NCBI GenBank assembly: GCA_050011565.1
Contig: JBEKIW010000006.1
Coordinates: forward strand, 27,848 to 91,847
From: Dehalococcoidia bacterium
GTDB lineage: Bacteria > Chloroflexota > Dehalococcoidia > GIF9 > UBA5629
Length of the DNA: 64,000 bases
Direction of reading: 5' to 3'
The translations under genes and the position numbers were made by a program. Under the pieces are notes generated by a model. The model was given only the letters and a program-made list of their open reading frames with translations. It made no database searches and was not told where the DNA came from. The stretch's first letter is position 1, and every line of letters begins with the position of its first letter. Of the stretch, positions 44,162 to 64,000 are shown one piece after another.

Positions 44162-44186
44162 ATGAAGCAGCACCACATCCATATTG

Positions 44187-44332: not shown

Positions 44333-44348
44333 CTAATAGAAGCCGCAC

Positions 44349-44374
44349 GGGTGAGGCTAAAGCCTCGCCCCTAC
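44349..44374 (-). repeat. GTAG-type REP-like palindrome overlapping the DUF72 stop codon
   Basis: Minus strand GTAG-GGGCGAGGCT-TT-AGCCTCACCC. Confidence 0.6.
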
Positions 44375-45096: not shown

Positions 45097-45135
45097 TGGA
45101 CTTCAGCGCCACCCCACAGCTATAATTAATTACCA

Positions 45136-45402
45136 ATGAAACAGCCTGACAGCCAATCAAAACTTCCCGTTCCCGTAAATCCGCCGAAGCTGCTCAACCA
45201 GGGCTTCCTCTGGATACGCAGCCGCGGCAGCTCTATCAAAACGCGAAGGTTCTCCGGAATCTCCTCGGTCTTAATGGCACCCGTCTTCATGCTGGAATTC
45301 CTGTTCCTGGCCCTGCTTATAGGCATAATATTGCTCATCTTTGGACTTTATGTAATGTTCAACCTGCTGGTTTCCCTACCCCGGCTGAAAAAAGGCACTT
45401 AA
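45136..45402 (+). CDS. small hypothetical membrane protein
   Basis: Fills the gap between two minus-strand genes; long hydrophobic C-terminal half. Confidence 0.45.
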   Translation: MKQPDSQSKLPVPVNPPKLLNQGFLWIRSRGSSIKTRRFSGISSVLMAPVFMLEFLFLALLIGIILLIFGLYVMFNLLVSLPRLKKGT

Positions 45403-45405
45403 CGC

Positions 45406-46185: not shown

Positions 46186-46236
46186 AGCCCCTAATTATAT
46201 CAAGAAAACCAGCCATATCCCCACACCCTACTAACA

Positions 46237-46292
46237 CCCCACAAATCCGAAATTCCAAACATCAAATCCCAAACAATATCCAATTTCAAAAT
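46237..46292. repeat. left-arm copy of the AT-rich repeat at 44187-44332
   Basis: CCCCACAAATCCGAAATTCCAAACATCAAATCCCAAACAATATCCAATTTCAAA aligns with CCCCACAAAATCCAAAATCCTAAGCATCAAATACTAAACAAATTCAAATCTCTAA. Confidence 0.6.
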
Positions 46293-46328
46293 CGGATAAA
46301 CAAAAAATGTAGCGTAAAAGTAAGTACC

Positions 46329-46431
46329 TGTCATTGCGAACCCTTCGCGCTGGGTCATTTCGATCCCATCCCCGCTCATTCTGAGCCTGTCGAAGAATCT
46401 CCACTCAGGATAAACTCCGCGTGGCAATCTC
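46329..46431. repeat. composite palindromic miniature element (GTCATTGCGA...GTGGCAATCTC with nested CATTCTGAGCCTGTCGAAG / CTCAGGA motifs)
   Basis: Outer ATTGC/GCAAT dyad plus inner CTTCG/CGAAG and CTGAG/CTCAG dyads. Resembles intergenic palindromic repeats common in anaerobe genomes. Confidence 0.6.
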
Positions 46432-46506
46432 ACGGCCATCCTCTAGCTTACATATCATGTTTCTGTTAAAATTGGCGCAGCCTCACCACTAAGAAAAAGA
46501 AATCAA

Positions 46507-47424
46507 ATGACCACACTACAGGACGAAATCGCCCAGTTCCTCAGGAAATACCAGGCAAAAACCGGTAAGCTGCTGACCATCGGCACCGTCGAATCGGCTA
46601 CCGGCGGCAGAATCAGCGACAAGATAACCAATGTCCCCGGCAGCTCCGACTATTTCAAAGGCTCAATCGTCTCATACAGCAATGAAGCCAAGACGAATAT
46701 CGTCGGTGTCAAAAAACAGACACTCAGGAAACATGGCGCCGTCAGCCGCCAGACAGCCATAGAGATGGCTAAAGGCGGTAGGAAACTGCTCAGGGTAGAT
46801 GTCTGCCTGTCCGACACCGGAATCGCCGGGCCCACCGGTGATATGCCCGGAAAGCCCGTAGGATTATTCTATATCGGTCTCTCCGCTAAAGACAGCAATC
46901 TGGCTAAGGAGCACCGTTTCCAAGGCAATCGCGAGGAAAACAAGCAAAAAGCGGCTGAAATGGCGCTGACCATGTTGATAGATTATTTACAAAAGCGCGT
47001 CAGCGAATCAGCCGATAGCACCATGGACGAGAAACATGTGGTTACCTGCTTCCTGGAGCATGGCCGAAAAATCTTGATTTTAAGGCGCAGCAGCAAAGTT
47101 GGCACTTACCGTCGAAGCTGGGCTGGCGTCAGCGGCTACATCGAGACGAACGACATCGACCAGGCTTTCACCGAGATAAGACAGGAAACACAACTTTATC
47201 AAAAAGACCTGAAATTAATAAAAAAGGGCGCGCCGTTGGAAGTCATCGATAAGAACCTGAACCGCAAGTGGATAGTCCACCCCTTCCTTTTCCACGTAAA
47301 GGCGCCGGACAAAATCAAGATTGACTGGGAGCATACCGAGTCTAAGTGGATTAAACCGTCGGAACTGAAAAAATACGACACCGTTCCCGGACTGGCCAAA
47401 GCCCTGGCACGGGTGAATAAATGA
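46507..47424 (+). CDS. PncC/CinA C-terminal NMN deamidase fused to a Nudix domain
   Basis: VESATGG, PGSSDYF, YSNEAK, HGAVS, TGIAGP, KPVG; C-terminal VTCFL..ILILRRS..WAGVSGYIE...IDWEH.E..W. Confidence 0.88.
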   Translation: MTTLQDEIAQFLRKYQAKTGKLLTIGTVESATGGRISDKITNVPGSSDYFKGSIVSYSNEAKTNIVGVKKQTLRKHGAVSRQTAIEMAKGGRKLLRVDVCLSDTGIAGPTGDMPGKPVGLFYIGLSAKDSNLAKEHRFQGNREENKQKAAEMALTMLIDYLQKRVSESADSTMDEKHVVTCFLEHGRKILILRRSSKVGTYRRSWAGVSGYIETNDIDQAFTEIRQETQLYQKDLKLIKKGAPLEVIDKNLNRKWIVHPFLFHVKAPDKIKIDWEHTESKWIKPSELKKYDTVPGLAKALARVNK

Positions 47425-47466
47425 AACGCGTCTGCAATTCCCCTTTTACCAGACCAGGAGCTGAAC

Positions 47467-47569
47467 ATGCTGGCTAAAGTAATGAGCTGTGCCGTAGTCG
47501 GGCTGGAGGGAGCCATCGTTGAAGTCGAGGTTGATATCTCTCCCGGGCTGCCCGCATTTACAATTGTTG
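47467..47569 (+). pseudogene. comM: 5' fragment of comM/yifB (Mg-chelatase-like AAA+ ATPase), interrupted by an integrated element
   Basis: CAGGAG SD then MLAKVMSCAVVGLEGAIVEVEVDISPGLPAFTIV. The family's next residues (GLPD) are replaced by VSPYRNCLLESNLQ, stop at 47611-47613. Not in the ORF track. Confidence 0.88.
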
Positions 47570-49075
47570 TATCACCTTATCGAAATTGCCTATTGGAATC
47601 AAACCTTCAATAATAACTGTAAGTCTATCAATCCAGATTTTGACCTGTAGTGCCTGCATCGCCAATCGCTTCTGCACAAAGCCAAAATCATCTATGTTTT
47701 GGGCTGCCATTTCACAAAACCTCTTTATCCCATTCTCATTTATCTCAGCTTGTTTTGCTGTCTCCATTTGCATCTCCAGCTCATCAATTGCCTGTTCAAT
47801 CCTTGCTCTCTGGTCGTAAATTCTCTGAAGTTCTGCCAATGTTTTTTCTTCGGACCTACCGGCATATAGTCGCAACCGTATAGCCCGAGTCTCAGCCTCA
47901 TCCAAATTTCCTAGTCGACTCTGGTTACGTTGCAATTCCTCCTCTATGTACTTAACTTCTGTTTTCGCTTCACGCCGGCGCTTCAATTCGTGCAATAGCA
48001 GGTCTGGATTTTGCAATGTCTCTTTTACACGGTTCCAAACGATTGTCTCCAACCAATCAGCATTTACGCGATAGTTGCGACATGGCTCTGGAGACACAAC
48101 CCTGCTCCGGCCCGGACATCGATAATAGCGGTATCGCTTATGCTCTGGTTCTCCACAATAACGTCGTTCACAATGGCGGCAAAAAACCAAACCCCTTAAT
48201 AGCCACTGGTACTTCTGGTCTCTTGATGCTAATCCGACATTCATTTTAAGCTGTCTCTGTGCTGCCTGAAAGGTCTCTTTAGTTATTATTGGAGGTGTTG
48301 CATCCGGTAGCTCAATCCATTCTTCTCTGGGTCGCGGTTCCCGACGCGAGCCCACAGCCCTCATTATGTAGCTATATGTTTCCCCACAATAAACAGGGTT
48401 TCGCAATATTCGCCCTACTGTTGTTCTTCCCCAACGGACTCCACCTTTTGGTGCTGGAATACCTCTTACGACTAACCTTCGGCAAATCTCATTACAGGAA
48501 CATTATTCTTCAATAAGCCACCTAAACATCATCGCTACGACGCTAGCTTGATAATCGTTCACTTTTCTTTTACCAGTTGTTGAGTCATAATCATATCCGT
48601 AGAGATTGACACCACCTGTTGGAAGTTTGCCCATCTGAGCTCTGCTTTTCCTACCTCTTGTTGTCCTTTCTCTTATCTTCTCTGCTTCCAATTTAGCAGC
48701 GAAGCCCTTTATATAAACTACTAACTTCCCTAGGTCAGAACTTTCTATTGTTTCAGTAACTAGGTCGAGCACAACACCTGCTCTGTTTATCTCCTCTTGT
48801 AGAATAATAAAATGACCTGGGTCGCGAGTTAGGCGGTCTAATGTGTAAGCAATAACAATATCCACATCTTTATCCTTCACCCACTGCCTAAGTTCAGATA
48901 GTTTAGGTCTATCGAGGGCCAACCCAGAGAATGTCTCCAGAACAATGAACTCGTCCGGCACCTCATAGCCAAGCTCAAAAGCTTTCTTTAGACAACCGTC
49001 TTTTTGGCTCTGTAACGATGTGCCTTCTTTTTGTTGGTCATCGGTTGATACTCGGCAATAAATTGCAGCCTTCAT
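47558..49075 (-). pseudogene. large serine recombinase (resolvase + recombinase + Zn ribbon + coiled coil) with one in-frame TAA at 48503-48505
   Basis: The two track ORFs are in the same frame, separated by TAA plus 32 sense codons (WLIEE*CSCNEICRRL...WGRTTVGRILRNPVYCG). Motifs YCRVST (catalytic Ser), SG...RP, DRLTR, CRHC...YYRC...C. Confidence 0.9.
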
Positions 49076-49308
49076 TAACTACCTCCTCGAAATGCGTCGT
49101 TCATCAACTGATGCCAAGCCACTTTCTGAGCATGTGTTGGAATAGGGAAACAGACTTCAGAATAATTGGGGCAATTCGTACAATCTCGACTACAAGCCTC
49201 ATCTCGTCGCCCCTTTAATGACATAACGACCAGCTTTTCATCCTCTGGGGTACTGAAAAGCTGCCTGTATGCTTCCGCTAATGTTTCTGCCTGCTTCAGT
49301 TTTTGCAT
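49075..49308 (-). CDS. 77-aa Cys-cluster hypothetical protein translationally coupled to the integrase
   Basis: AAAGGAG SD; TAATG stop/start overlap with the recombinase; CSRDCTNC-x6-C motif. Confidence 0.65.
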   Translation of the reverse strand: MQKLKQAETLAEAYRQLFSTPEDEKLVVMSLKGRRDEACSRDCTNCPNYSEVCFPIPTHAQKVAWHQLMNDAFRGGS

Positions 49309-49349
49309 ATCAGCTCCTTTCTAAAATCAAACAGGTCCTTGCCTCAGTC

Positions 49350-49829
49350 TTAGTCTGGCGAGAATGAGGCATCCCTACATTTTAGCCGCATTTGAATCTT
49401 TGTTGGTTGTAAGTACTTTTGCCCTCCATTTTCAACCATTTCTGTCTCTACTCGATAAACCTCATACCCGGGATTTTCCTTTTCCAGCTGTTCATAAAAT
49501 CTCGGTGCTAACATTGTATAGGAACTAACAACGTCAGCATCGTCACCAACCGGAATTATCTCCCGAGTCTCGACTTCCTTGAGATGTAGAAATTCTGCTT
49601 GAATTTGTCTTAGGCTTTTACCTTCACGTTGCAATCGCCTAATATGCTGAATCTGTTCCAGTGTACAGCTTGGATAGTAAGTCACAGACCCGTTTCCTCC
49701 AAGCCCCTCCCTCCTCAGGGGTCGAGGTAGCAACCCTAGCCCCTTGTATTTCTGGAAGGTGGCAGGAGAAACAGCCGCGCTCTGAATTATCTCTTGGAAG
49801 GTTATTTCACTATCTGTTGGCAGTCTCAT
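49350..49829 (-). CDS. MerR-family HTH DNA-binding protein
   Basis: ITFQEIIQSAAVSPATFQKYKGLGLLPRP...YYP...LEQIQHIRRLQREGKSLRQI. Start moved to MRLP because the promoter overlaps the longer track ORF. Confidence 0.75.
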   Translation of the reverse strand: MRLPTDSEITFQEIIQSAAVSPATFQKYKGLGLLPRPLRREGLGGNGSVTYYPSCTLEQIQHIRRLQREGKSLRQIQAEFLHLKEVETREIIPVGDDADVVSSYTMLAPRFYEQLEKENPGYEVYRVETEMVENGGQKYLQPTKIQMRLKCRDASFSPD

Positions 49830-49836
49830 GTAGTAT

Positions 49837-49865
49837 ATCATATCATATCCTATATACTTTGTCAA
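49837..49865 (-). promoter_or_regulatory. strong sigma70-type promoter giving a probably leaderless merR-like transcript
   Basis: TTGACA-17 nt-TATGAT; the ATG starts 8 nt after the -10 box and there is no SD. Confidence 0.65.
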
Positions 49866-49928
49866 ATTACCCATTTGTTCTCAGAGAGGCTCCCAGTAAG
49901 CCAAATACTAGTGGGAAAGTGCAGGAAA

Positions 49929-50128
49929 CGTTATCTGTGGTTCTCTATGGTTCTCTAAGGTTACCTATGGTTCTCTAAGGTTCTCTATGGTTCTCTAAGG
50001 TTACCTATGGTTCTCTAAGGTTATCACGGTTATCTATGGTTCTCTATGGTTCTCTATGGTTCTCTATGGTTCTCTATGGTTATCGCGCTATGGTTACCTG
50101 TGGTTATCTATGGTTATCTGTGGTTCTA
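49929..50128. repeat. tandem array of ~20 10-bp units (GGTTCTCTAT / GGTTCTCTAA / GGTTACCTAT / GGTTATCTGT)
   Basis: Read directly. Includes an exact 40-bp duplication (49941-49980 = 49981-50020). Confidence 0.95.
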
Positions 50129-50142
50129 TGCAACCCTATGCC

Positions 50143-50182
50143 GATTCCAAGTGATTCCAGATGATTATCGATGATTCCTGAT
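50143..50182. repeat. second 10-bp-period array (4 x GATT-initial units)
   Basis: GATTCCAAGT GATTCCAGAT GATTATCGAT GATTCCTGAT. Confidence 0.7.
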
Positions 50183-50501
50183 AACTGTGGAAAAGACTCA
50201 CGTGGAATCGTTAGTGTTTACAGCTGCGACCTCAACACCGGGAAAGGATGATGGTAGGATCATTATCTCTTGCCGTGTTGTTCGACAAAGCAATGGCTGA
50301 TATTTAGGGTGTTATCTCCTACATCGCTTGAGGATATGAACACACTGCCATAATGTGTTTATACAAATCAGCGACAAAGGGGTAAAACAAAATTGCACCT
50401 TACAGGCAAATGTTCAACAACTGCACATTCTGAGCTTCTGTTGCTCAAGTGCTGTTACAGGTTTTCAGTATGTTCTATGCTCTCGTGTGTATAGTATGGT
50501 C

Positions 50502-51323
50502 TTATTTTTTGAAGGGAGTCTTAATAACCACCTTAACCCCTGAAATAGTTCCAGAGACGGCTTTTGTGACGGATTGTGAAGCAGCTTCGCTAACTTCACG
50601 GGCAGCCTTCACTGCACCAGTGGCTGCTGCTGACGCAGCATCCTCAGCGCTTACGGAAACCTCTTTGGCAGCCTCGATAGCTCCAACTACTACGTTCTTG
50701 GCAACTGTGGACAAATCGCCGCCAACATTTGCCGTCCACTTTATCAAACCACTTGACATGTGCTGTACAGCCTGAATCACATCGCCACCTGTTTCCTTGG
50801 CGCCAATTATGGTTCCCTTGATAGTAGCTCTGGCAACGGTTCCGATATCTGCTCCTATGTCCTTGGCGCCGTGAATCGCTCCTCTGGCGATGCTAGATGT
50901 TGCATCTTCTATATCCAGGCCGACACTTTTAGTAGCTGTCAAGGCGCCGTGAGCAGCACCTTGAGTTGTTTTAGTTACATCGCCGCCAACTTCGGAGGTA
51001 CCCTTTATAGCCGCCCGGATAATATCGCTTACTTCATCCACTGTTACCTTCGTAACCTCGCCTACTCCCCGTATTGTACCGACGACCGCCCCTTTGGCAA
51101 CAGAGCCAAGTTCGCCACCAACCTGACCGGCTGCATGTATAATACCGGCTACAACGTCCCCTGCCAGTGCTGATGCCTCCGTTCCAATATCTCTTGCACT
51201 ACGAAGACCATCTGCAACATTACTGCGGGCAACCTCTATTGCGCTTTTACCGACATCTCCTGCACCCTTTGCCGCTTGAACAAAAGCTTGGCTAACCTTC
51301 TTCCCCGGATTTCCCAGTGGCAT
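50502..51323 (-). CDS. Ala/Gly/Val-rich protein built from 22-aa amphipathic repeats
   Basis: AAGGAGGG SD; at least 8 consecutive 22-mers such as AKDIGADIGTVARATIKGTIIG. Confidence 0.8.
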   Translation of the reverse strand: MPLGNPGKKVSQAFVQAAKGAGDVGKSAIEVARSNVADGLRSARDIGTEASALAGDVVAGIIHAAGQVGGELGSVAKGAVVGTIRGVGEVTKVTVDEVSDIIRAAIKGTSEVGGDVTKTTQGAAHGALTATKSVGLDIEDATSSIARGAIHGAKDIGADIGTVARATIKGTIIGAKETGGDVIQAVQHMSSGLIKWTANVGGDLSTVAKNVVVGAIEAAKEVSVSAEDAASAAATGAVKAAREVSEAASQSVTKAVSGTISGVKVVIKTPFKK

Positions 51324-51604
51324 ACTATCACCCTCCTTATACTAAGATTTTCTATACTTTAGCACGCCAAACCTTACAAAGTCATAAAATCGGCATGATA
51401 ATGGTTACAAAGCTATCTCATTTTCTCTAGGCGATATAAGAAATTGGTGCCACACCGGAATCAGCCCCTTTTTCTCAAAGAGAAGTTCGGAAACTGTCCA
51501 GCAAGTCCTATTGACTAGGTGCCAGTCAGTACTCATTGCACCTTACGCTATATTGTTGCCTTCCGTTTCATGTTGCGCATCTGAGTGAATGATATAATTA
51601 AATT

Positions 51605-52156
51605 ATGGAGACAGAAAAACCAGATAATTTGCATCATTCACTCGACCTCTCCACATATAGGGAATACTGGACTAGTCGAGATGGGAGAACCGTAATATTA
51701 AGATCGATAACATCAGAGGATAAGCGAATAGAGAAAGAGCTTATCGACGGACTGTCGCGTCAATCATCTAGATACAGATTCCTCCACGCGATTAAAGAAG
51801 CCACTGAGGAAATGGTCAATCAATTTTGCGATATCTCTTATAAGAATGAGATTGCTATCATAGCTGAATACACTTCAAATAATAAGAAGCGAAACGTCGG
51901 TGTTGTTAGGCTTTGTATTGACCCCGGTCTACAAACCGGCGAATTCGCCATATTAGTAGCTGATAACTTCCAGGGCAGTGGTTTAGGCACGAAATTCATG
52001 GAGACCTTGATTGATATAGGACGGGAAAAAGGATTGAAAAGTATATACGGTATAGTGCTAGCAGACAATAACAGAATGCTGACTCTTGCGAAAGAGTTTG
52101 GTTTTAGTATTGGCGCAAATTCATACGGTGAAGTCAGAATTGTCCGGCAACTTTAG
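51605..52156 (+). CDS. GNAT acetyltransferase (Pat/protein lysine acetyltransferase GNAT-domain-like)
   Basis: RDGRTVILRSI...D, SRYRFL, GEFAILVADNFQGSGLG, VLADN..ML.LAKEFGF. Confidence 0.85.
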   Translation: METEKPDNLHHSLDLSTYREYWTSRDGRTVILRSITSEDKRIEKELIDGLSRQSSRYRFLHAIKEATEEMVNQFCDISYKNEIAIIAEYTSNNKKRNVGVVRLCIDPGLQTGEFAILVADNFQGSGLGTKFMETLIDIGREKGLKSIYGIVLADNNRMLTLAKEFGFSIGANSYGEVRIVRQL

Positions 52157-52369
52157 TTCGATAAATAGTGAACAAACATCAGGATATCTGTGCAAATGCA
52201 GACATCAAGTTTGGCAGTAAGCTAAACGAAAACGAAAGCACTCACAACTCATAAGTCCAGAATCTTATTATTTCCTTCTTCGAAGGTCACAAAATGAGTT
52301 ATTGTTAGCCGGCGGGTTCCGCATCCATCGGGTCGAGAAAACTAAGATTCTGATGAGAAGTTTGCACTA

Positions 52370-53044
52370 TCAATAAAACTTCGCCACCTTCTCCAACGGC
52401 TCGCGTGCGGAGCGGAATTTGGTTGCCGGGTGGTCCCAGTCGGGGTAACCGATGGGTATGCCTACCACGAAGAGCTTGTTATCAGGAAGCCCCAGCACCT
52501 TGCGCAGGACGTCCGGGTAGAGCACAGGTAGGATAGCTGGTAAGCTGCCCAGGCCGTGCTCTACAGCTAGCAGCATAATAGTCTGAGTGACTAAACCGCA
52601 ATCGAAGATATTCAGCGAATTGGGGATTTCGCTTGCGTTGTAGAAATTCTTATCAATGAGCACGTAAATGCAACTGGGAGCACCCCACAGCTTCATGCCC
52701 CACAGGTTCCAATCGGCACGCTTCTGCTTGTCCTCGCGGGTTATGCCCAGCTTTTCCTGCATGCCATGCATTACGGCGCCGTACCGAGAACGCCAGGGTT
52801 CGGGATAGTTCATGGAGCTGGGGATATCCATTTTGGGCATCAGGGAGGCAGCAGCCAGCGTTGCTGCTTTGACATCGTCGAGCTTAGCGCCGCTTACTAC
52901 TGCATATTCGCAGGGCTGGCTGTTGCCGGCGGAAGGGGCACGCAGAGCGGTCTCAACTATCTTTTTCAGGATATCCTCAGGAACTGGATCGGGCTTAAAG
53001 GCCCGGATAGACTGACGTTTAATGACAGCTTCGTTGACGTTCAT
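52370..53044 (-). CDS. nitroreductase family protein
   Basis: RQSIRAFKPDPV, APSAGNSQP, DCG...Q.IMLLA..GLGS, IGYPD, R.R.P. Confidence 0.92.
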   Translation of the reverse strand: MNVNEAVIKRQSIRAFKPDPVPEDILKKIVETALRAPSAGNSQPCEYAVVSGAKLDDVKAATLAAASLMPKMDIPSSMNYPEPWRSRYGAVMHGMQEKLGITREDKQKRADWNLWGMKLWGAPSCIYVLIDKNFYNASEIPNSLNIFDCGLVTQTIMLLAVEHGLGSLPAILPVLYPDVLRKVLGLPDNKLFVVGIPIGYPDWDHPATKFRSAREPLEKVAKFY

Positions 53045-53325
53045 TTTCTCACCTATTCTTCGTGTAGTAGCCTTTGATTATACCATGGATTGATCACCCT
53101 GCCCTCTCGCCATGCCGAATCCATCGCATCCTTTAATCTGTGCTCAGCTTCCTAATAAATACACGGCATATTTCATCAAAAAGAACCGATTATTAAACCA
53201 TACGATCCCTCATTACCTCATCCCATCCACCGGACTGAACTTACTATGCTAGCTGGTAAAAGGATGGAGAATATCGGAAATGGTCAAAGCAGTAGGTGGA
53301 TGGAGTTAAACAAAACGTCACATTG

Positions 53326-53353
53326 TTGACAGGGATTAGTCCTGTTGTACAAT
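53326..53353 (+). promoter_or_regulatory. sigma70-type promoter with a dyad (possible operator) in the spacer
   Basis: TTGACA-16 nt-TACAAT with ACAGG-N7-CCTGT overlapping the -35 box and spacer. Confidence 0.5.
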
Positions 53354-53387
53354 GGGGGCAGCGCTATTCGTAAAGGAGGTGTCAATA

Positions 53388-54095
53388 ATGGGTATGTATG
53401 AATATACGCTGGATGAACATGTGGCCTTGCTTACAATGAATGAGACCAGATTCAATATAGATTCCGTTACCGCGTTTCTATCGGTGTTGGACCAAATAGA
53501 AAAAGACACTGATGCTAAGGTACTGATAGTCCGCTCTAGCGATGCGAAGATATGGTCCAACGGTATCGACCTTGAATGGCTATTGCCGTTTTATCAGAAA
53601 GGCGAAAAAAGCGTCACCGATATGTTCACTGCTAAACTGAACGAACTGCTCAAACGTATTCTTTTCTATCCTATGATTACTATTGCTGCTATTACAGGCC
53701 ACGCCTTTGCCGGCGGAGCTATAATGGCATGTTGTTTCGATTTCCGCTTTATGAGGAAAGATCGCGGCTATCTTTGCTTTCCCGAGGTCGATCTGGGCAT
53801 ACCATTTGTCCCCAGCATGACTGCCATGATTAAAAAAGCTATGCCGATGGATTTAGTAGAAGATATGCAGCTAACTGGAAGGAGGCTTACTGCTGACGAG
53901 TGCGAAGCACGCCATGTCATACGGAAAGCCTGCACTATGGACGAACTGATGGGTGAAGTTATATCCTTTGCCAAGGGACTGAACAAGGAAAGATCGATAG
54001 TTGCTAAACTGAAGAATGTGATGCATAAGGATATATTGAAAGTCATAGAGGTTGATGACCCGGCTGCTTTAAAATCATTGTACCTTGGTTCCTGA
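53388..54095 (+). CDS. enoyl-CoA isomerase/hydratase family (delta3,delta2-isomerase-like)
   Basis: WSNGIDL, AAITGHAFAGG (first Glu absent), CFPEVDLG; AAGGAGGT SD. Confidence 0.85.
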   Translation: MGMYEYTLDEHVALLTMNETRFNIDSVTAFLSVLDQIEKDTDAKVLIVRSSDAKIWSNGIDLEWLLPFYQKGEKSVTDMFTAKLNELLKRILFYPMITIAAITGHAFAGGAIMACCFDFRFMRKDRGYLCFPEVDLGIPFVPSMTAMIKKAMPMDLVEDMQLTGRRLTADECEARHVIRKACTMDELMGEVISFAKGLNKERSIVAKLKNVMHKDILKVIEVDDPAALKSLYLGS

Positions 54096-54192
54096 GTCTT
54101 CGGTATTGTTGACTTTAAAGTAGAGAGTGTCCTTGATATGGGAAGCCTCGGATACCCTTGAACAAAAAGCCAAAAGGTGTTTTCTTATTCCC

Positions 54193-54432
54193 TCAGCCGA
54201 CCCGGATGCATAGGCAGGTAACCGTTCTATTGATGCCTGAGATATTATGTATCTTTGTAGCAACAACGTTACCTATGGTGTTAAGGTCGGCTCCTTCAAT
54301 CGTGACAATAATGTCATAGGGTCCAGTCACTGTGTCAACGCTCTTTATCGCCGCTAGTTTTTGCAAAGCACTAAAGACTTCTTTGGTCTTACCCACTGCT
54401 GTTTCAATTAGGGCAAAAGCCTTTGCTTCCAT
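54193..54432 (-). CDS. stand-alone Lrp/AsnC ligand-binding (RAM) domain protein
   Basis: KAFALIE...GK...V...L, VTGPYDII, I..ISGI.RTVT; 79 aa with no HTH. Confidence 0.85.
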   Translation of the reverse strand: MEAKAFALIETAVGKTKEVFSALQKLAAIKSVDTVTGPYDIIVTIEGADLNTIGNVVATKIHNISGINRTVTCLCIRVG

Positions 54433-54750
54433 ACTACCTCGCCTCCTTGATTGTGATAACTTGCTATTTCCAGTTGATACGCTATTATGGCCCCATTTAC
54501 TGGACAAATGCAATGGTGATATGTCTCATGACTGTTACAAGCCCAAATACTGCAACCCTCGTAATCCATTACAAGCCTTTTGGGCAGGGATTTCAATCGT
54601 AAACTCAACATTTCATCGTAATGTGCAGTGAACAAAACGATGTAATGTGTAATCCTGTGCCTTGTCCCGACTTTGGTAATAATCTATACTTTGTTGTATG
54701 ACTGAAGTTAATCCTGAAAATGGTAATTAAATTACATTTGGAGGTACAAG

Positions 54751-54951
54751 ATGGCCAGAGACCCAGTATGTGGAGTAGAGGTGGATGAGAAAAAAACAAG
54801 ATTTACCACAACCTATAAAACTAGGACCTACTATTTCTGTAGTGAAGTATGCAAGACTAAATTTGATAACGCAGTAAACAATCTTAAAAAAGCTGGTGGT
54901 GGTATCTGCTTCGGTGTCCGTATCGAGGAAGAAAAGGCAGCCAAGGAATAG
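54751..54951 (+). CDS. YHS/TRASH-domain small protein
   Basis: DPVCG..VD, Y...TYYFCSEVCK.KF; GGAGG SD. Confidence 0.85.
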   Translation: MARDPVCGVEVDEKKTRFTTTYKTRTYYFCSEVCKTKFDNAVNNLKKAGGGICFGVRIEEEKAAKE

Positions 54952-55239
54952 CCGAACAGCTATATAATTCGGTCGTGCCTACAAGAACCTCAGTGCTATG
55001 CATTGAGGCACTATTGAATGTAGAACAACGCAATGTTAACGACGACACAAGATGACGGTTTGTTCAATTTCTGGTTGACCTAACTCATTGTAAACAGATT
55101 GATTATGTGATGCTGCTTTATTCTTCATAGATCTCTATGTTAATCTTCGACTAGTTTAGACAAAGGGGCCTGATGTGCAATAATACCAATGATTTTCTTC
55201 GATGATAATTAGAGACTCAAACATCACAAGGAGGAAACA

Positions 55240-56835
55240 ATGAGCGACAAAAAGACCGTAGAGCCCAACGAAATCCGTCCCGATCTGGCCGAGGTGATCC
55301 AGCGCCATGAAACCACGCTGGACAGGGCGCGTCCCGAAATGGTGGAGAAGCGCCGGAACAGAGGGCATCGAACAATACGGGAGAATATCGCCGATCTATT
55401 GGACCCGGATGACTCCATCGAATACGGATCACTGATGCTGGCCGCGCAGCGGCGCCGCATACCCATGGATGAGTTAATCAAAACAACCCCTGCAGACGGA
55501 CTTGTCGCCAAGATAGGGTCTGTCAATGGCCATCTGTTCGATCGCTCCCAGACCAGGTGTCTGGTGTTAGGATATGATTACTCCGTCTTGGCCGGCACCC
55601 AGGGCATGTTCAACCACAAGAAAAAAGACCGCATGCTCCAACTCGCCTACAAGCATAAACTACCCACGGTGCTCTTTGCTGAAGGTGGAGGGGGGCGGCC
55701 GGGAGACGTAGATACCATGGATTTTGTCGTGGCAGGGCTTGATTGCATGGCATTCGCGCACTACGCCAGGCTCAGCGGCCTTGTCCCTGTGGTAGGGATC
55801 GTGACCGGTTATTGCTTTGCCGGGAATGCGGCACTTCTGGGCCAGAGCGACGTGATCATCGCCACCAAAGACTCAAATATCGGGATGGCCGGCCCGGCAA
55901 TGATTGAGGGGGGTGGCTTGGGTGTATTCAGACCGGAGGAGATCGGTCCCATGCCGGTACAGTCGCAAAACGGTGTTGTCGATATCCTTGCTGAGGATGA
56001 CGCTGATGCGGTGCAGAAGGCTAAACAGTATATCTCCTACTTTCAAGGGAGCATTGGAGACTGGGAATGCGCGGACCAGCGCTTCTTACGTCAGATGATC
56101 CCGGAAATGCGCCGCAGGGCATATGATGTCCGCAAGATCATCGATACCCTGGCGGATACGGGTTCTGTTCTGGAGCTCCGCCCGCAGTTCGGGGAGGGCA
56201 TAGTCACGGCACTTGTTAGAGTCGAAGGACGCCCCTTCGGGCTGATAGCAAACAATGTGAAACACCTTGCAGGGGCCATAGACGCGGATGGCGCAGACAA
56301 GGTCTCCCGTTTTATTCAAATTTGCGATGCTTTCGACATCCCCGTTGTTGTTCTTATCGACACGCCTGGATTCATGGTTGGCCCGGACGCAGAGAAGACA
56401 GCTCAGGTGCGTCACTTCTGCCGTATATTCACCAATGCCGTCAATGCAACTATCCCGATCTTTAGCGTGGTATTGCGCAGGGGATACGGTCTCGGCGCCC
56501 AGGCCATGGCAGGGGGAAGTTTCCATATCTCCGACTTCATCGTATCATGGCCGACAGGCGAGTTTGGCGGCATGGGGCTGGAGGGTGCTGTTCGGCTCGG
56601 CTTCAGAAAAGAACTTGACGCCATCGAAGATCCTGAGAGACGCAAGGCGCGATTCGAAGAGTTGTTAGCCATGCATTACGAGCACGGAAAGGCAATCAAT
56701 ATGGCTGCTACCCTCGAGATCGACGATGTTATCGACCCGGCGGAGACCCGCCACTGGATTATGTGCGGCTTGCATTCTATGCCCGGACCTGAACGGCGCA
56801 GCGGTAAAAAACGGCCGAATATCGACTGCTGGTAA
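55240..56835 (+). CDS. acyl-CoA carboxylase carboxyltransferase domain protein
   Basis: TPADG, YDYSVLAGTQG, AEGGGGRPGD, CFAGNA, GMAGPAMIEGGG, DTPGFMVG, GYGLGA. Confidence 0.92.
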   Translation: MSDKKTVEPNEIRPDLAEVIQRHETTLDRARPEMVEKRRNRGHRTIRENIADLLDPDDSIEYGSLMLAAQRRRIPMDELIKTTPADGLVAKIGSVNGHLFDRSQTRCLVLGYDYSVLAGTQGMFNHKKKDRMLQLAYKHKLPTVLFAEGGGGRPGDVDTMDFVVAGLDCMAFAHYARLSGLVPVVGIVTGYCFAGNAALLGQSDVIIATKDSNIGMAGPAMIEGGGLGVFRPEEIGPMPVQSQNGVVDILAEDDADAVQKAKQYISYFQGSIGDWECADQRFLRQMIPEMRRRAYDVRKIIDTLADTGSVLELRPQFGEGIVTALVRVEGRPFGLIANNVKHLAGAIDADGADKVSRFIQICDAFDIPVVVLIDTPGFMVGPDAEKTAQVRHFCRIFTNAVNATIPIFSVVLRRGYGLGAQAMAGGSFHISDFIVSWPTGEFGGMGLEGAVRLGFRKELDAIEDPERRKARFEELLAMHYEHGKAINMAATLEIDDVIDPAETRHWIMCGLHSMPGPERRSGKKRPNIDCW

Positions 56836-57214
56836 AGTCGCTTGTTGTCCCATCAGATACAGTGAAGTGGTGGAATGCACCCACAACAGGGATTGATGAG
56901 AACGAGCACAACATCACCAGTACCACAATGAACTCAATGACGAATTATGTAGTGGTATGTTATCCGGTTGTGCTGATCTACCCCACTCCTGCTTAATCTC
57001 CAGTCTAACATTAATACTGGACTCATCTTCGGGAGAGTAGATCTCGGAAGTCACAGAAGGCTTCCCAAAACTCCCAATGTGGGGGGAAGATGGAGAGAAT
57101 TCATTACCTCAGGACGATTGATAGTTAAATAAGCCACATTATTATCTTTCTTCTCATAGATAAGATACTTAAAATCCATGATAACCTTCTTTGAATTTTA
57201 AATACATCTCTACA

Positions 57215-58423
57215 TTATCTTTGTAAATTATCGATGACTGTGGCAACACCCAATCCGCCACCGCAGCAAGAACTGAAGAAGCCATATCTCCCACCGGTCC
57301 GGATTAAATGACGCAAGGCGAACATACAGATTCTAGCCCCGGAAGCGCCATTGGGATGACCATAGGAAATAGCACCGCCTAACGGGTTCCATTTTCCGCG
57401 ATCCACTTTTTCGCCCGTCTGTTTTTCAAGTTCTTTAATGACTGCCAGGTTTTGTACGGCAAATGCTTCGTTACATTCCATATGGTCGAAATCTGAAAGC
57501 TTCAAGCCCGCTCGCTTCATAGCTATAGGAATAGCATACGCGGGGGCAATGCCCATAATCTTAGGATCGACACCGTAATCACCACCGGCAAGCCATTTCG
57601 CCATCGGTTGATATCCCAATTCATTGGCTTTTTCCGCACTCATCATTAAAACAAAAGCACCCCCGTCATTTTGACCGGAAGAATTCCCGGCCGTTACCGT
57701 ACCGCCCTGTTTGAATACAGCCGGAAGTTTGGCCAGACCTTCCAATGTAGTGTCAGGTCGGGGATGTTCGTCTATATCAAAAATCCTGTCAGGGGTTTTC
57801 CTATCGCCTTTAATGGTTACCGGGACGAGCTCGTCTTTAAAATAATTGTTTTCCATAGCCATCTTGGTTCTCATCTGGCTCTGGTAGGCAAATTCGTCTG
57901 ATGCTTCGCGTGGAATATTGTACATGACCTGTAGATTTTCTGCCGTCAGGCCCATGCCTATAGACTCTTCCGGCACGGGGGATAACTCGCCCCGAATGGC
58001 TGCGGGCGGGATCAATTTGTAGGGTTGTGTGGACATAGGAAATTTTGCAAACACCTGGCTGTATGATTCCATCCCACCGGCAATGATTACATCTGCATGG
58101 TTAGCCAAAATTCTCCACGCTGCGTGATTGATTGAGTCAATGGCGGAACCACACTGCATTTCTATATAAGATGATGGTGTCTCTTTGGGTAATCCTGCCG
58201 CAAGAGTCATCCATCGTGCGGGATTCAATGCATGAGAACAATGGGCTGCTGACCCCGCAAAAACACAGTCCACCCTACCTCTTTGGGCAATTTCGGTTTT
58301 CTCGATCAATCCTTTCAGAGCAAAAGTAGCCACTTGTGATGCAAAGAAACTACGTAGTGATCCGCCCATTCTTCCAAAGGGAGTCCTCACACCATCTATA
58401 AAAACAACTTCTCTATCTGCCAT
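57215..58423 (-). CDS. acetyl-CoA C-acyltransferase (canonical thiolase)
   Basis: RTPFG, QCGS, GGMES, DEHPR, TAGNSS..NDG, NEAFA, GGAI..GHP.GASG, CCGGGLG. Confidence 0.94.
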   Translation of the reverse strand: MADREVVFIDGVRTPFGRMGGSLRSFFASQVATFALKGLIEKTEIAQRGRVDCVFAGSAAHCSHALNPARWMTLAAGLPKETPSSYIEMQCGSAIDSINHAAWRILANHADVIIAGGMESYSQVFAKFPMSTQPYKLIPPAAIRGELSPVPEESIGMGLTAENLQVMYNIPREASDEFAYQSQMRTKMAMENNYFKDELVPVTIKGDRKTPDRIFDIDEHPRPDTTLEGLAKLPAVFKQGGTVTAGNSSGQNDGGAFVLMMSAEKANELGYQPMAKWLAGGDYGVDPKIMGIAPAYAIPIAMKRAGLKLSDFDHMECNEAFAVQNLAVIKELEKQTGEKVDRGKWNPLGGAISYGHPNGASGARICMFALRHLIRTGGRYGFFSSCCGGGLGVATVIDNLQR

Positions 58424-58885
58424 TGTATCTCCTAAAATTTATTTATATTTAACTGATTTTACTATTTATTTTTGTTAATAGCAGCCATCTGTTGACCACG
58501 ATCATTATGCTATTAGCCTTTTCTCAGTTCAGATTTGCCATACCACGTTGTTTCCATAACAGCAGACACGGATAATTGTTATGATTCTACCATCACTCCT
58601 AGTGTAGTACAATAAACTATTGTGATTTGGCGTTGCACTTTACTGACTATTGTGCACTTCCTATCCATTGAACAAGAACTCTGAATGTGCAAATTGCGAC
58701 AACTTTATTGTAACTTAAAGAAATGGAATAACTATTGGCGACAGATCAACGGCAATAAAGACGGGATTGCGTTTCCCATCATGCTATCGTAAAAGACAAG
58801 ACAGCATCTCATGAATTAAGAGAGGCATGAATAGTAGAGTATGGTTTGATAGAGTAAAGCGCTGTACAAGCACTCAATGCCTGCC

Positions 58886-59968
58886 TCAGGTGGGACTCCA
58901 GGACGGCGTAGTCGGTAATCCTGTGGCTGACTGACCAGGGATTACTATAATATAAGCCGTCATAGTTGAACTGCTAGAACTGTTGGCTGCAGTAAGAGTG
59001 TACATAGTGCTCACATAGGGCGACACTGTTATCGTACCAGCCGAACATACTGTGCCAATACCCTGATCAATAGAAACTGATGTTGCTTGCATTACATCCC
59101 ATTTCAGAGTTGAAGGTTTCCCCGCGTCAACAATATGCGGATCCAAGGAAAAATCGTTAATAATAGGGGGGCCTGCCATTGCCACGGTTACTGTAGCTGT
59201 AGCAGTTGTTGAGCCAGCACTGTTAGCGGCAAAGAGATTGTAGGTAATATTTGTGGTGGGTGTTATTGACAGCGTTCCCTTAGAAGAGACAGTGCCTATA
59301 CCCTGATCGATAGTGACTGATGTTGCTCCCGTGATATTCCACTGTAATGTTGAACTTTGCCCTGCGGTAATACTACCCGGGTTTGCGATAAAACTAGTTA
59401 TAACCGGCAGACTCTGCGGGGTTACCATATTCGGGGTTACTATAACCGTGGCTGAGGAAGTTGTTGAACCAGCGTCATTAGTTGCATTAATGGTATACGT
59501 AGTGCTGGTGCTCGGGGCTACAGACTGTGTGCCGGCAGAAGACGTGGCGCCGATGCCTTGGTCTATCGAAACTGACTTTGCTCCGCCGACATCCCATTGC
59601 AAAGTTGCTGTTTGACTCTGCGTGATCGCCGAAGGGTTAACATCAAACGATTTCACTACAGGTGGCTTGAGCGTATTGAAGATAGCCCCATTTGCAGCAA
59701 GGGCAATTCCAACTATGATCAGCAAAATAAGCCCTGCTACTGGTAATGCAAAGCGTACCACCGACCTTTTCCTTTGAGGGGTGGTCCCTGAATAGTCAGA
59801 CATAGATTGATGCTGTTCGGGATACTGATGTCCGTATCGATTTTGGGATGAAGGCGGTGATCCCCTTTTTGATGCAGGCCAGTTTAGCTTCTTACCACAA
59901 TTAGGACAAAATTTTTGACCATAACCAACGAGCGCTGAACAGTAAGGGCAGGAATACATTTGTTGCAT
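58886..59968 (-). CDS. zinc-ribbon membrane protein with three extracellular Ig/PKD-like repeats
   Basis: CPYC...FCPNCG, one TM helix, three repeats of P.I.SF..NP..I..G..STL.W.V.GA.SV.IDQGIG. Confidence 0.82.
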   Translation of the reverse strand: MQQMYSCPYCSALVGYGQKFCPNCGKKLNWPASKRGSPPSSQNRYGHQYPEQHQSMSDYSGTTPQRKRSVVRFALPVAGLILLIIVGIALAANGAIFNTLKPPVVKSFDVNPSAITQSQTATLQWDVGGAKSVSIDQGIGATSSAGTQSVAPSTSTTYTINATNDAGSTTSSATVIVTPNMVTPQSLPVITSFIANPGSITAGQSSTLQWNITGATSVTIDQGIGTVSSKGTLSITPTTNITYNLFAANSAGSTTATATVTVAMAGPPIINDFSLDPHIVDAGKPSTLKWDVMQATSVSIDQGIGTVCSAGTITVSPYVSTMYTLTAANSSSSSTMTAYIIVIPGQSATGLPTTPSWSPT

Positions 59969-60328
59969 AAATACTATCTTCTTTTCTACGAACCAATACT
60001 CAACCTGCTTGCTTATATAATGTACATGTGAAAACTACCATTACATTGGATTATATCACTAAAAGACTAAATGACAATTTGAGCTATGGCATGCATGTTT
60101 TTCAACACGCAGGATTTGAGAACCATTCAGCAAATACAGGTTTAATTGCACATTCTAGCGTTTTGTGCACTATATAATGCGATGAATAGTTTATGTCATT
60201 AATTCACAATTGGGGTGGAGTGGTTGTCAATTCACTGCGCTGATGCGATGCTAACCGGTGCTCTGTCTGAGTGCTAGTACCTATTGAGATGGTTAACAAT
60301 CAGTCAGGAGAACGTGAATTGAAGGATA

Positions 60329-60357
60329 TTGACATAAACTGATCTAAAGGCTAGCAT
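60329..60357 (+). promoter_or_regulatory. sigma70-type promoter
   Basis: TTGACA-17 nt-TAGCAT upstream of 60450. Confidence 0.45.
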
Positions 60358-60449
60358 TTTAGTAGGGTCGATTTGTCTGAAACGACTTAACCACTACAGT
60401 TTTATTTGGACTGAATATGAGATTAACGAGATAGAAAACTCTATCCAAG

Positions 60450-61766
60450 ATGACTAAGCTATCAAAGGATTTTTACCTTGCCTCAACCGTAGGTGGTTTC
60501 GCGTTGGGATTTATTCTTACCATCGTCGGAAGCATGCTCTATTCTACAGGTTTGGTGGTGATTGGGTTACTTCTTATTCTGATTGCTATCCCTATGTACA
60601 TTTACAGCTTCGTTGTAGGGAGTCTGCTTGTCTACCGGATGTGGGAATCTATCCAGGACGGTTATGTCAGAGCTACTCCAGCTAAGGCTGTTGGGTTTCT
60701 TTTTGTTCCGTACTTTAACCTTTATTGGATATTTCAAGCATTATGGGGTTTTTCCAAGGACTGCAATCAGTATATCGATCGCCATCAAGTTACCGTTCGT
60801 AAACTACCTGAAGGACTTTCCCTGGCCTTTTGCATAGTGTCCCTTTTATCGTTTTTAGTACCGCCTATTATCGAAGTCCCGATAATTGGCGCCCTTATGA
60901 TAACAGGGATTTCCCTGGCCTTTTACATAGTGGCCTTTTTGTCGTTTTTAGTATTGCCGATTATCGCAGACTTGATAATTGGCGCCCTTCTGATAAATCG
61001 TGTCTGTGACACTGTAAATCAGTTGCCTCAACCAAGTAACATCGTGCCAAGGAGGCGTTCAGAGATGATTGGCAATAATAAATCTCTGCACAATTATCTT
61101 GCAAGACGATGGATACGTAGAGTTCCGGAATTACTTCTGTTTAATGTGTTTATGGGGATCGGCTTTCTAGTAGTAATTGCGTCGCCATTTATCCCGGTTA
61201 CAGCTACAACTGGTTGGGCTGCCTTCACATTAGCATTCATAAGAGCTACGAGCAATGTTCTCGCTATCATACTTCTTTCTTTTGTATATCTCGATCTTCT
61301 TGGATGGCGCGGTTTTTTGGCTGGAATACTAATGGGAATTGTCGTTTTGGTCTACAACTATAATGCAACTAGTCCCACAATTTACGTAACAGCGTGGTTA
61401 TTTTATATTATTTTCTGGGTATATATGAACATTGATTATATAAAATATAAAAGATTGGCGAAGGAAAGGATTGATGCCATCGCTGAAGAAGCCTCTCCTA
61501 GTATTGACCAAACACTTGAAAAAGGCATACTACAGCAGATCATTTTGAGACAAAACGAGCGCGCAATTGCGACTCTGAGACCTGTCCTGTCTGTGGAAGG
61601 AGGAGATGCTCTGCTTTGGTATCTCACCGGTGTTGCCTTTGCAAATATGAAAATGTATTCTGAGGCTTTGTCTGCATTTGATAAGGCCATGGAGGCTTCT
61701 CCCGATGCAAAAACAGTGAGTAAGATTAATAGAAGCCGACGCATTGCACGACGCAGAATGCGATGA
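60450..61766 (+). CDS. multi-pass membrane protein with C-terminal TPR
   Basis: TPAKAVGFLFVPYFNLYW motif, many TM segments, LWYLTGVAFANMKMYSEALSAFDKAMEASP TPR. Confidence 0.7.
   Translation: MTKLSKDFYLASTVGGFALGFILTIVGSMLYSTGLVVIGLLLILIAIPMYIYSFVVGSLLVYRMWESIQDGYVRATPAKAVGFLFVPYFNLYWIFQALWGFSKDCNQYIDRHQVTVRKLPEGLSLAFCIVSLLSFLVPPIIEVPIIGALMITGISLAFYIVAFLSFLVLPIIADLIIGALLINRVCDTVNQLPQPSNIVPRRRSEMIGNNKSLHNYLARRWIRRVPELLLFNVFMGIGFLVVIASPFIPVTATTGWAAFTLAFIRATSNVLAIILLSFVYLDLLGWRGFLAGILMGIVVLVYNYNATSPTIYVTAWLFYIIFWVYMNIDYIKYKRLAKERIDAIAEEASPSIDQTLEKGILQQIILRQNERAIATLRPVLSVEGGDALLWYLTGVAFANMKMYSEALSAFDKAMEASPDAKTVSKINRSRRIARRRMR
60813..60995 (+). repeat. 93-bp (31-aa) intragenic tandem duplication
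   Basis: TTTCCCTGGCCTTTT at 60817 and 60910; GLSLAFCIVSLLSFLVPPIIEVPIIGALMIT vs GISLAFYIVAFLSFLVLPIIADLIIGALLIN. Confidence 0.85.
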
Positions 61767-62025
61767 CAATCTTAAATAAGAAAATCTTTAATACATCTAG
61801 GTATCTCTCTATTTCTGACTCTCGTTCAATGACCATGTCCTGAACAAAAGTCCAGATTGTTCAGCGACTGAGATTTCGTTTTATGCTCTTCAATCGGAGG
61901 TTAAGGGATTAAAACTCCGTCATTCCGACCTGTGCAACGAACTTCTATATCCACCAAATAACCGATAGGCATAACTGAAAGTATGATCAGAAGTCATCAT
62001 ATTAGCCTGCATAAAACCACTATTA

Positions 62026-62916
62026 ATGACGATGTACTTTCTCCAGTTTGCAGGTAAACTTGATAATATGAGAAACCATGAATACGCTATAGCTAATACA
62101 ATATTACCAAATGCTAAAAAAGGGGGGCTGAGAAGGAAAGAAATACCGGTTGTCTTTGGTAGTCATGGCATAAGACTGCAAGGCAAAATCATGCTTCCTG
62201 AACGCGCAGATATCAATAATCCGGTTCCCGGTGCAGTTCTCTGTCATGGATTCGGTGCAGACTGTAACGTCATGGAGTCCAGCGCCTTACTCCTGGTAAA
62301 AAAGGGGATAGCTACTATCATCTTTGATATGCGTGGTCATGGTCTGAGCGGCGGCTATCTCGATGGTAAGTCCTATGAAGATGTCATTGATGCCTGGAGA
62401 ATTCTCACCAGTTTGCCTGAGATCGATAGTTCACACGTTGCCCTCATCGGTCATAGTCTTGGTGCTATGTCATCTATTCTAGCCACAAGAAAAATAAAGA
62501 AGCCGAAGGTAATAGTAGCTCTTTCATGTCCTTCTGAAATAGATGGAGCAGTGTTTAGAGATCCTTCTCACAAAGCCCACTCATTGGCTAGATGGTTAAT
62601 TACATGTGTTTGGAAACTTACTGTTTGGTTCAGCCGTCTGAAAGTAAGAGTTGATTGGGAAAAATTCCTGGAGTCGTGGCCTAAGATAAAACTCACGCCC
62701 ATACTTGCGGAACTTGGTGAATGTGCCAAACTCTTTGTCTTTAGCGCAAGCGATCGGTTATCCCCTTATAAAAGGTTCGCTCCATTTTATGAAAAAGCTC
62801 CCGGACCTAAGAAAACAATGTTGACCAGAGGGTCTCATGTAACTCCCATTGAAGCCGAGATTCTCCGTTTCGAGTGGGTTGGCTGGGCTGTGTCTGCGTT
62901 GACTCTTTCAAACTGA
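62026..62916 (+). CDS. alpha/beta hydrolase
   Basis: LCHGFG, FDMRGHGLSGG, GHSLG, D and GSH near the C-terminus. Start uncertain. Confidence 0.85.
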   Translation: MTMYFLQFAGKLDNMRNHEYAIANTILPNAKKGGLRRKEIPVVFGSHGIRLQGKIMLPERADINNPVPGAVLCHGFGADCNVMESSALLLVKKGIATIIFDMRGHGLSGGYLDGKSYEDVIDAWRILTSLPEIDSSHVALIGHSLGAMSSILATRKIKKPKVIVALSCPSEIDGAVFRDPSHKAHSLARWLITCVWKLTVWFSRLKVRVDWEKFLESWPKIKLTPILAELGECAKLFVFSASDRLSPYKRFAPFYEKAPGPKKTMLTRGSHVTPIEAEILRFEWVGWAVSALTLSN

Positions 62917-63357
62917 TTGCATTAACTGAACGTTTGCCTGTTTTGTGTAATGGGCTGCTCTCCGGATAGGCTGAAGCGAAGACGAGTTCTGTCTATTGTA
63001 CACTTAGGCCCACCATCCAATCAGGTAATATCATTACCACAAATTAGCTTCAATTCAAACCAAGAAGGTCTAGTTTTCTTATTTTTCCTTCGCAAAGGTG
63101 GTGATGTTATTACCTAAAATGACATAGCATATGGCACATGTGTCGTATGTCCAAAGGTTGTTCATAACATCCAGATATATGCTGAAGGAAGAGATGGGCA
63201 GCAGGCAGTACACGAGCATAGATAGAAGGCAAAATTCTAATAAACCGTTTTATTAGAATGTCACTGTCTACAACGATTGTTAATTTCCCGACGAAGCAAA
63301 TAGAATTCACCCAGACTTCCTTCTGGATAGTTGTAGCCGCCTTCGCCAAACGGGTCA

Positions 63358-63999
63358 TTACTTCAGAGACCTCTCGTGCCTCGCGAGGAGCTCTTCGCGG
63401 TTCTGACTTAGGTCCATTCCGGTCGATGCGGCGGGATAAGGTTGACTGCTCATCAACGCTGTCCAAAGGATGCGATTGTAGGTCGGGAAATCCATCTTGT
63501 CTGCGGAGGTAAAGTCCACCCCTTTCGTGACCTCTGCCCAGTATTCCGCGTCGTGCGTTGGCTTGGGCACGATCAGGCTGGCCGGCTTGGGAGGCAGCGG
63601 CAGTTTTGTATTGTAGAGAGCCGGTGAGGGAGCGGCGGTAAAGCTCCACTTGCTCGGCGTCGTGTTGAAGACATCAGCCATGGGTTTCCCGAGTGCGTCG
63701 TTCAGGTTCATCGGCGGGAGGCCCAGGACCATTTCTATCGTGCGCAAAAAGTCGATGGTGTTGTACTGCGTGGAGACCAGTGTACCCTGCTTCACATAAG
63801 CACCGGCGATGAACGCAGGGCTGCGATGCGAATCGACGTGATCAGGTCCATCCTGGGAGTCGTCTTCAATGACAAAGATCAGCGTGTTGTTGGCGTACTT
63901 GCTGTCTGCGATCTTTTGAATCAGCAGACCAACCGCATAGTCGTTGTCAGCTTGTTGCAGCTCCGGAGTATTCACGCCGTCAATTGCGGTGGCAAAGTT
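63358..63999 (-). CDS. phosphoesterase/alkaline-phosphatase-superfamily protein, C-terminal part (5'-partial)
   Basis: Frame is open to the window edge (NFATAIDGVNTPELQQADNDYAVG); FVIEDDSQDGPDHVDSHRS, LRTIE..LGLPPM..ND. Confidence 0.8.
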   Translation of the reverse strand, partial: NFATAIDGVNTPELQQADNDYAVGLLIQKIADSKYANNTLIFVIEDDSQDGPDHVDSHRSPAFIAGAYVKQGTLVSTQYNTIDFLRTIEMVLGLPPMNLNDALGKPMADVFNTTPSKWSFTAAPSPALYNTKLPLPPKPASLIVPKPTHDAEYWAEVTKGVDFTSADKMDFPTYNRILWTALMSSQPYPAASTGMDLSQNREELLARHERSLK

Positions 64000-64000
64000 T

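Follow-up and report, generated by a model that had tools for sequence, protein, structure and literature searches.

The 64,000-nt window analysed here, a stretch of a Dehalococcoidia genome, most likely carries the left part of a mobile island of about 21.6 kb that lies in codon 32 of comM and was placed there by a large serine integrase with the dinucleotide AC as its crossover site. Comparison with related elements supports the view that, in this family, the integrated and excised states encode different integrase C-termini, as the difference could be rebuilt in all six attL/attR pairs and two forms of the protein occur within one cluster. A preliminary description of the window had already placed attP inside the 3' end of the integrase gene with a different C-terminus for each state, and its reading of comM starting at 47467 and facing a convergent serine recombinase that ends in DKVIQQL with a TAA at 47560-47558 was borne out (Table 1). 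The remainder of comM, which it expected elsewhere in the assembly, is on contig C8 with GLPD at C8:3190, where the match to TIGR00368 scores 606 bits. Two features had escaped that description: a stop at integrase codon 191 and a degenerate comM 5' piece in the attP arm.

Table 1. Features at the left end of the comM island and in its host flank (window positions).
Feature	Position	Strand	Remarks
cinA-NUDIX gene, host flank upstream of comM	46507..47424	+	Pfam CinA, NUDIX
comM codons 1-31, host, B arm of attL	47467..47559	+	
Large serine integrase, 505 codons	47558..49075	-	Pfam Resolvase, Recombinase, Zn_ribbon_recom
Crossover dinucleotide AC (Thr32), attL core	47560..47561	+	Partner core C8:3181-3182 (attR)
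P' arm of attL, from the element; its minus strand codes for the final integrase residues	47562..47586	+	
In-frame premature TAA, integrase codon 191	48503..48505	-	
77-aa ORF overlapping the integrase start, putative directionality factor	49075..49308	-	No Pfam match
MerR-like helix-turn-helix ORF	49350..49874	-	Weak match, E 4.7e-4, under the Pfam cut-off
10-bp tandem array, 19.5 copies	49930..50127		
83-bp segment	50335..50417		Inverted copy at C8:1998-2080, 91.6%
Probable cargo	50502..64000		GNAT, nitroreductase, enoyl-CoA hydratase, carboxyltransferase, thiolase, TPR, hydrolase, phosphoesterase 3' end

Comparison with other comM-targeting serine integrases revealed 11 that abut comM at the same codon, so the junction in the window is not a chance one; all 12 attL junctions of these related integrases, the window's included, fall at Thr32 (L094 was left out of the 11 because its printed junction is identical to that of L092). 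Both att sites were available in six pairs. In G186 (about 9.9 kb) and G120 (about 12 kb) they share one contig, and the other four pairs, this genome's included, were joined from separate contigs of draft assemblies. Outside the six pairs stand G016, in which attR was lost along with an IS-like insertion and a deletion, G097, in which the contig is cut, G113, where a separate contig bears an intact comM whose sequence differs, and G577-G580. Only two dinucleotides, AC at offset 0 and GT at offset 6, are common to all six pairs. With AC as the core, the rebuilt attB reads F-T-I-V-G in 6/6 pairs and inverted symmetry of attP reaches 70 of 120 positions, while the next best of 31 offsets reaches 43 and GT only 24; in this copy the P' arm and the arm on C8 are symmetric at 10 of 20 positions. 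Since AC is shared by all six pairs, restores F-T-I-V-G and centres the symmetry, the core is AC at 47560-47561. The rebuilt sites thus have a 2-bp core with inverted-repeat arms, as in large serine integrases of the phiC31/TP901-1/SPbeta type.

The preliminary description had comM running on to the GTTG at 47566-47569. Host sequence instead ends at the AC of 47560-47561, a correction of 8 bases, and a junction at GTTG, or at GT, was rejected as it puts K, N or E after the Thr in five of the six rebuilt attB sites. In intact comM genes, Thr32 is followed by I or V in all 30 cases; the remaining 11 attL sites have, directly behind this Thr, K, K, K, D, K, N, N, E, M, N and V. Bases 47562-47569 are accordingly element arm that happens to encode I-V. 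As the host ends at the AC of Thr32, two of the three bases of the integrase stop derive from the host Phe31 codon and the first is part of the core, so that the earlier placement of this stop in comM-derived sequence stands for two bases but not for the remaining one.

It is extremely unlikely that the crossover in this genome was instead within CATT (47555-47558), which would make the stop element-encoded and leave the C-terminus unchanged upon integration. Taken by itself, this genome does have a 4-bp in-register identity between attL and attR at that place (offsets -5 to -3), and the host of L065 does have Leu at the comM position concerned. However, a CATT core gives Leu where intact comM has Phe in 28 of 30 genes and Leu in none, it is unshared in half of the pairs (offset -3 is common to 3/6), and the symmetry about it is 25 compared to 70 for AC. 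A scan of 401 genomes of the class for the attR-type junction motif returned three matches, this genome and two intact comM alleles (T-M-T). Other positions in comM are also used by related integrases, near codon 345 by L086 (G188:C19) and a few codons past 32 by L065, and these two integrases likewise get their stop at the junction.

With AC as the core, the end of the integrase gene depends on the state of the element. Read backwards, the Phe-Thr codons are TAA or TGA in 28 of the 30 intact comM genes, and the integrase stops at the junction in 11 of the 12 attL sites. Correspondingly, 95 of the best 120 protein homologs have no residue past the last column of the window integrase. Where the host is without the Phe codon, the integrated integrase runs through 31-33 comM codons in antisense (L096/P0087, P0029 and P0060), so the integrated end looks like filler. 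In the attP rebuilt from each of five relatives, the frame stays open for a tail of 19-24 codons. IPF occupies positions 11-13 of this tail and is part of a motif, I-P-F-x-[LI], that is kept in the relatives. In tail codons 9-18, which lie outside the near arm, identity at the first, second and third codon positions is 0.61, 0.73 and 0.28; in codons 1-8 it is 0.75, 0.82 and 0.80. Of the six reading frames, that of the integrase scores highest for conservation in this region, at 24.4, followed by its antisense mirror frame at 14.1, a coding signature that comes from five related sequences and is to be taken as a pattern and not as a statistic. Proteins of both lengths occur in one 90% cluster, which contains the tailed P0055, P0126 and P0127 (523 aa), the partial P0128 and the tailless P0129 (504 aa). 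The 523-aa proteins may derive from tandem junctions rather than free circles; a search of viral contigs for free elements of the comM-32 clade returned eight loci, the best 40% identical. A similar IPF tail ends a serine recombinase of G121 (L166:12554-14098) that is 27% identical, and its own five homologs all stop short of that tail.

Given this coding pattern, we consider it probable that the tail belongs to the integrase proper, with the circle making the full enzyme and the integrated element a clipped, weaker form that favours staying in comM. Under this scenario, an incoming circular element would encode the complete integrase with its 19-24-residue tail, and integration would clip about 20 residues off the end of the second DNA-binding domain, an immediate stop usually being supplied by the host Phe-Thr codons read backwards. 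If the tail is needed for full activity or stability of the integrase, the clipped form would be weaker and further recombination would be damped, keeping the element in comM, as reported for Mx8. Because the clipped integrase of integrated relatives must still excise the element, the clipped form would not be simply dead. The copy in the window is grounded, both by the nonsense codon at 191 and by the captured comM 5' piece that interrupts its tail.

There is some chance, though a low one, that the overlap is neutral. The integrase would then need nothing beyond residue 504-505, and what follows would be conserved as DNA, whether as the far attP arm, a promoter or a site for an accessory protein. 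In favour of this, most of the best 120 homologs are tailless, and such forms have to be capable of excision; at other targets, the ends of related integrases vary and derive from the target; and in this genome the tail is disrupted. Conservation of DNA alone does not sit well with third codon positions that vary while first and second positions are kept, nor with the integrase frame ranking first of six, and the disrupted tail in this genome says little as the copy is a pseudogene. We regard it as distinctly unlikely that the tail serves to mark the protein for degradation or inhibition and so makes the free-element form short-lived and the integrated form stable, the same logic as in the integration-dependent immunity that Broussard et al. 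reportedly described in mycobacteriophages. A short hydrophobic C-terminal extension confined to the attP state is what such a tag might look like; yet the last residue of the tails is K, T or Q while the tmRNA tag of this genome ends in Ala-Ala, and the conserved motif is internal rather than terminal.

A tail that belongs to the enzyme might also set the direction of recombination, the tailed integrase integrating and the tailless one, with or without a small recombination directionality factor (RDF), turning toward excision or silence, but this seems unlikely. Were it true, direction would be set by rewriting the integrase's own gene, beyond coiled-coil geometry and the RDF alone. Serine integrases exchange strands at a 2-bp core with direction set by coiled-coil contacts and the RDF (PMC11722253), and the portion of that structure paper available to us explains directionality with no mention of such a tail.

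The integrase in the window is itself a pseudogene copy, while its relatives are intact. Its catalytic domain matches PF00239 with an E-value of 1.5e-29, PF07508 and PF13408 are found as well, and the nucleophile Ser10 is present in the window integrase and in 117 of 120 homologs, the remaining three having gaps there. Matches to PDB sequences are confined to the N-terminal 340 residues or less. The reading frame has two stops, at codon 191 (TAA, 48505-48503) and at codon 506 (TAA, 47560-47558). The first divides the gene into a 190-aa piece and a 314-codon piece, so that the domains are not in one ORF, at a position where all 120 homologs have a residue and 104 of them Gly. A sequencing error was considered and is ruled out, as the same TAA is in the metagenome locus L064, which is 100% identical over 16,729 bp, and in contigs of the runs X1, X2 (a possible source) and X3. 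In a quick tree, from which no order of events was drawn, the window integrase branches within the group that is sister to the main comM-32 clade.

The attR arm of this copy is also unusual. In the attP rebuilt for this genome, the tail is 71 residues long and IPF is shifted from position 11 to position 36. Read in antisense, the extra 25 tail codons correspond to a degenerate comM 5' piece at C8:3094-3180 (L165, C8:3085-3180), which matches the host comM at 12 of 29 residues, ungapped and in register with the core, with a score reached by none of 20,000 codon shuffles. The other five attR arms match the host comM at just 1-4 positions, and none of them has the piece. It is nearest to the comM alleles L030 and L031 (14-15 of 29). 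We infer that an imprecise excision from an earlier host may have taken the comM start along. The piece is in frame with the 3' part of comM and may once have given the host a repaired comM. At present it is preceded by ATG-CCG-TAA, and there is thus no intact start at the usual place; a GTG start on C8 opens a comM frame of 497 aa, and no sigma-70-like promoter was found at C8:2800-3300.

This anomaly raises the question of whether the junction on C8 belongs to the window element. It could have come from another element of a tandem array, or from the neighbouring tyrosine recombinase restoring comM with a 5' piece of its own, in which case the attP of the window integrase differs from that rebuilt here; we think this quite unlikely. 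The attL and attR sites are on different contigs, a small tyrosine recombinase adjoins the C8 arm, and a comM-like 5' piece is in that arm and in 0/5 others, as would be expected of a foreign junction. Against this origin, the C8 arm has the near-core consensus and symmetry of the serine-integrase family along with its IPF motif, if displaced. Moreover, there is no match to comM near the loci of the tyrosine recombinase's 19 relatives or near its C4 copy, and a tblastn search of the genome turned up no other close serine integrase, the next best and the other serine recombinases being only about 24% identical to the window integrase.

An ATG or TTG in frame directly precedes the core in all six attR arms (L001, L084, L085, L087, L088 and L163). 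It is possible that translation of the 3' part of comM restarts there, giving a ComM without its first 31 residues; the same ATG or TTG also lies within the arm consensus.

The preliminary description further held that excision would restore comM. Precise excision at AC would do so, as the rebuilt attB in the six pairs indicates, but for this copy it is doubtful. Runs X1 and X2 each cross attL in a single unbroken contig, and X3 bridges attL without differences; the junctions listed for these runs include no alternative one. Neither an empty attB nor a circular attP, both of which had been suggested as a sign of excision, was found among the junctions listed for the X1-X4 contigs, which drop rare variants; the listing leaves aside 142 loose ends and 348 pieces. 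The stop at 191, the disturbed tail and the unbroken attL contigs together make excision and the restoration of comM unlikely here. Since contigs lose rare variants, they may still be compatible with low-level excision in this population. The frames of comEC and dprA are intact in this genome, and loss of comM could, by analogy, lower transformation in this host.

The overlap of an integrase gene with its target has been described before in the same bacterial class. In the ssrA islands of Dehalococcoides, the reverse-strand serine recombinase DsiB always overlaps the 3' side of attL with its stop outside the island, and McMurdie et al. (2011, PMC3146451), in the sections of the paper seen, propose that DsiB may reach full function only in the circular form and suggest a possible regulatory role for the overlap. 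The window integrase is like DsiB in that its 3' end overlaps attL and its stop is outside the island, a likeness of layout. Unlike the DsiB islands, the target is codon 32 of comM rather than ssrA (the tmRNA gene of this genome is on C4), the integrase terminates right at the junction and not some 70 bp inside the target, and the six-gene module that has dsiA, parB and mom beside attL is not seen, as there are no such Pfam domains among the island ORFs scanned, the gap of about 2 kb excepted. The tail rebuilt from attP and its coding signature go beyond what is described for DsiB in those sections.

Mx8 provides the tested precedent for an attP within int (PMC6070905, PMC4383910); there integration gives int a new 3' end and alters integrase activity, described in the text consulted as a "molecular switch" (PMC6070905). 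The family studied here shares the attP within the integrase gene and the new 3' end after integration. Mx8 Int is a tyrosine recombinase that uses tRNA genes, and the segment it swaps is much longer, whereas here the enzyme is a serine integrase, the target codes for protein and the tail is about 20 residues. The overlap layout was already described in Dehalococcoides, and the window element is neither a DsiB island nor a member of the Mx8 integrase family.

The integrase/target overlap looks common across the wider clade. Related integrases overlap what we take, from translated motifs, to be dnaN, radC-like, IS and tRNA-like targets in addition to a second comM site, and one sister clade overlaps what is presumably a dnaN-like 3' end (L046, L048, L052, L115, L118, L123, L127, L128, L131, L132, L135-L137 and L140). 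In this sister clade, the integrase stop is inside the last codons of the host gene.

The preliminary description was right that comM/yifB is a recurrent integrase target. According to Durrant et al. (PMC10083194), 12.4% of the site-specific serine integrases that they predict insert into genes for Mg-chelatase/ATP-dependent protease (comM/yifB), which makes these a top target, and the integrases studied here use the same target family. An attP inside the integrase gene and this Dehalococcoidia clade are not discussed in the sections of that paper seen; its supplements may list such sites. Disruption of comM by mobile elements and its bearing on natural transformation are reviewed in PMC12378983. 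Like the cases in the part of the review seen, comM here is interrupted by a mobile element while comEC and dprA have open frames; unlike them, the 3' part is here joined, in frame, to a degenerate 5' piece that resembles comM. No description of the comM-32 clade was found in the literature searched, the scope of which did not extend to supplements, subscription papers or Mageeney et al. 2020 (TIGER).

Whether the overlap of integrase and att site matters was left open by McMurdie et al., as far as the sections seen go, and the comM-32 clade makes the question testable. The core has been mapped to 2 bp in six of its elements, the conserved tail is short, and one enzyme occurs naturally at both 504 and 523 residues. 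As integrases mined from integrated genomes for engineering would be cloned in the clipped form, poor performance of some might reflect the missing tail. The window copy, a dead island, adds little to this beyond the captured comM 5' piece.

The extent of the island was estimated from its cargo, which most likely continues across a gap of about 2 kb into C8:1-3180. The gene fragments at the right end of the window and at the left end of C8 are opposite ends of a single gene of about 1,000 codons, and the same gene spans the 1,992-bp gap in the loci of 4/4 relatives. The join to C8 is not unique, as the other end of C6 bears a 96.6% copy of the same 3' piece. Both C6 ends have the 3' 814 bp of the phosphoesterase-like gene (96.6% identical, inverted), and its single assembled 5' end is on C8. 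Cargo genes were found, by gene-by-gene presence only, in 10 of 13 genomes of the genus. On the host side, the cinA-NUDIX flank adjoins comM in several relatives' loci too. There are no tRNA genes within the 64-kb window and no Rfam match in positions 44,000-64,000 or in C8:1-4700.

Several smaller features were seen in the island. The 10-bp array is upstream of the integrase operon and is possibly a protein-binding array. The 83-bp inverted repeats flank most of the cargo, and the segment between them could be invertible. The copy on C8 adjoins the gene for the 250-aa tyrosine recombinase, which has a zinc ribbon (C8:2299-3051), and this stretch has DNA matches, mostly to the recombinase gene, in 45 of 201 genomes of the order. 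Lastly, a 459-bp segment at 54161-54619, covering a small ORF with an Lrp/AsnC domain, is duplicated at C1:509337-509795 with 99.6% identity.
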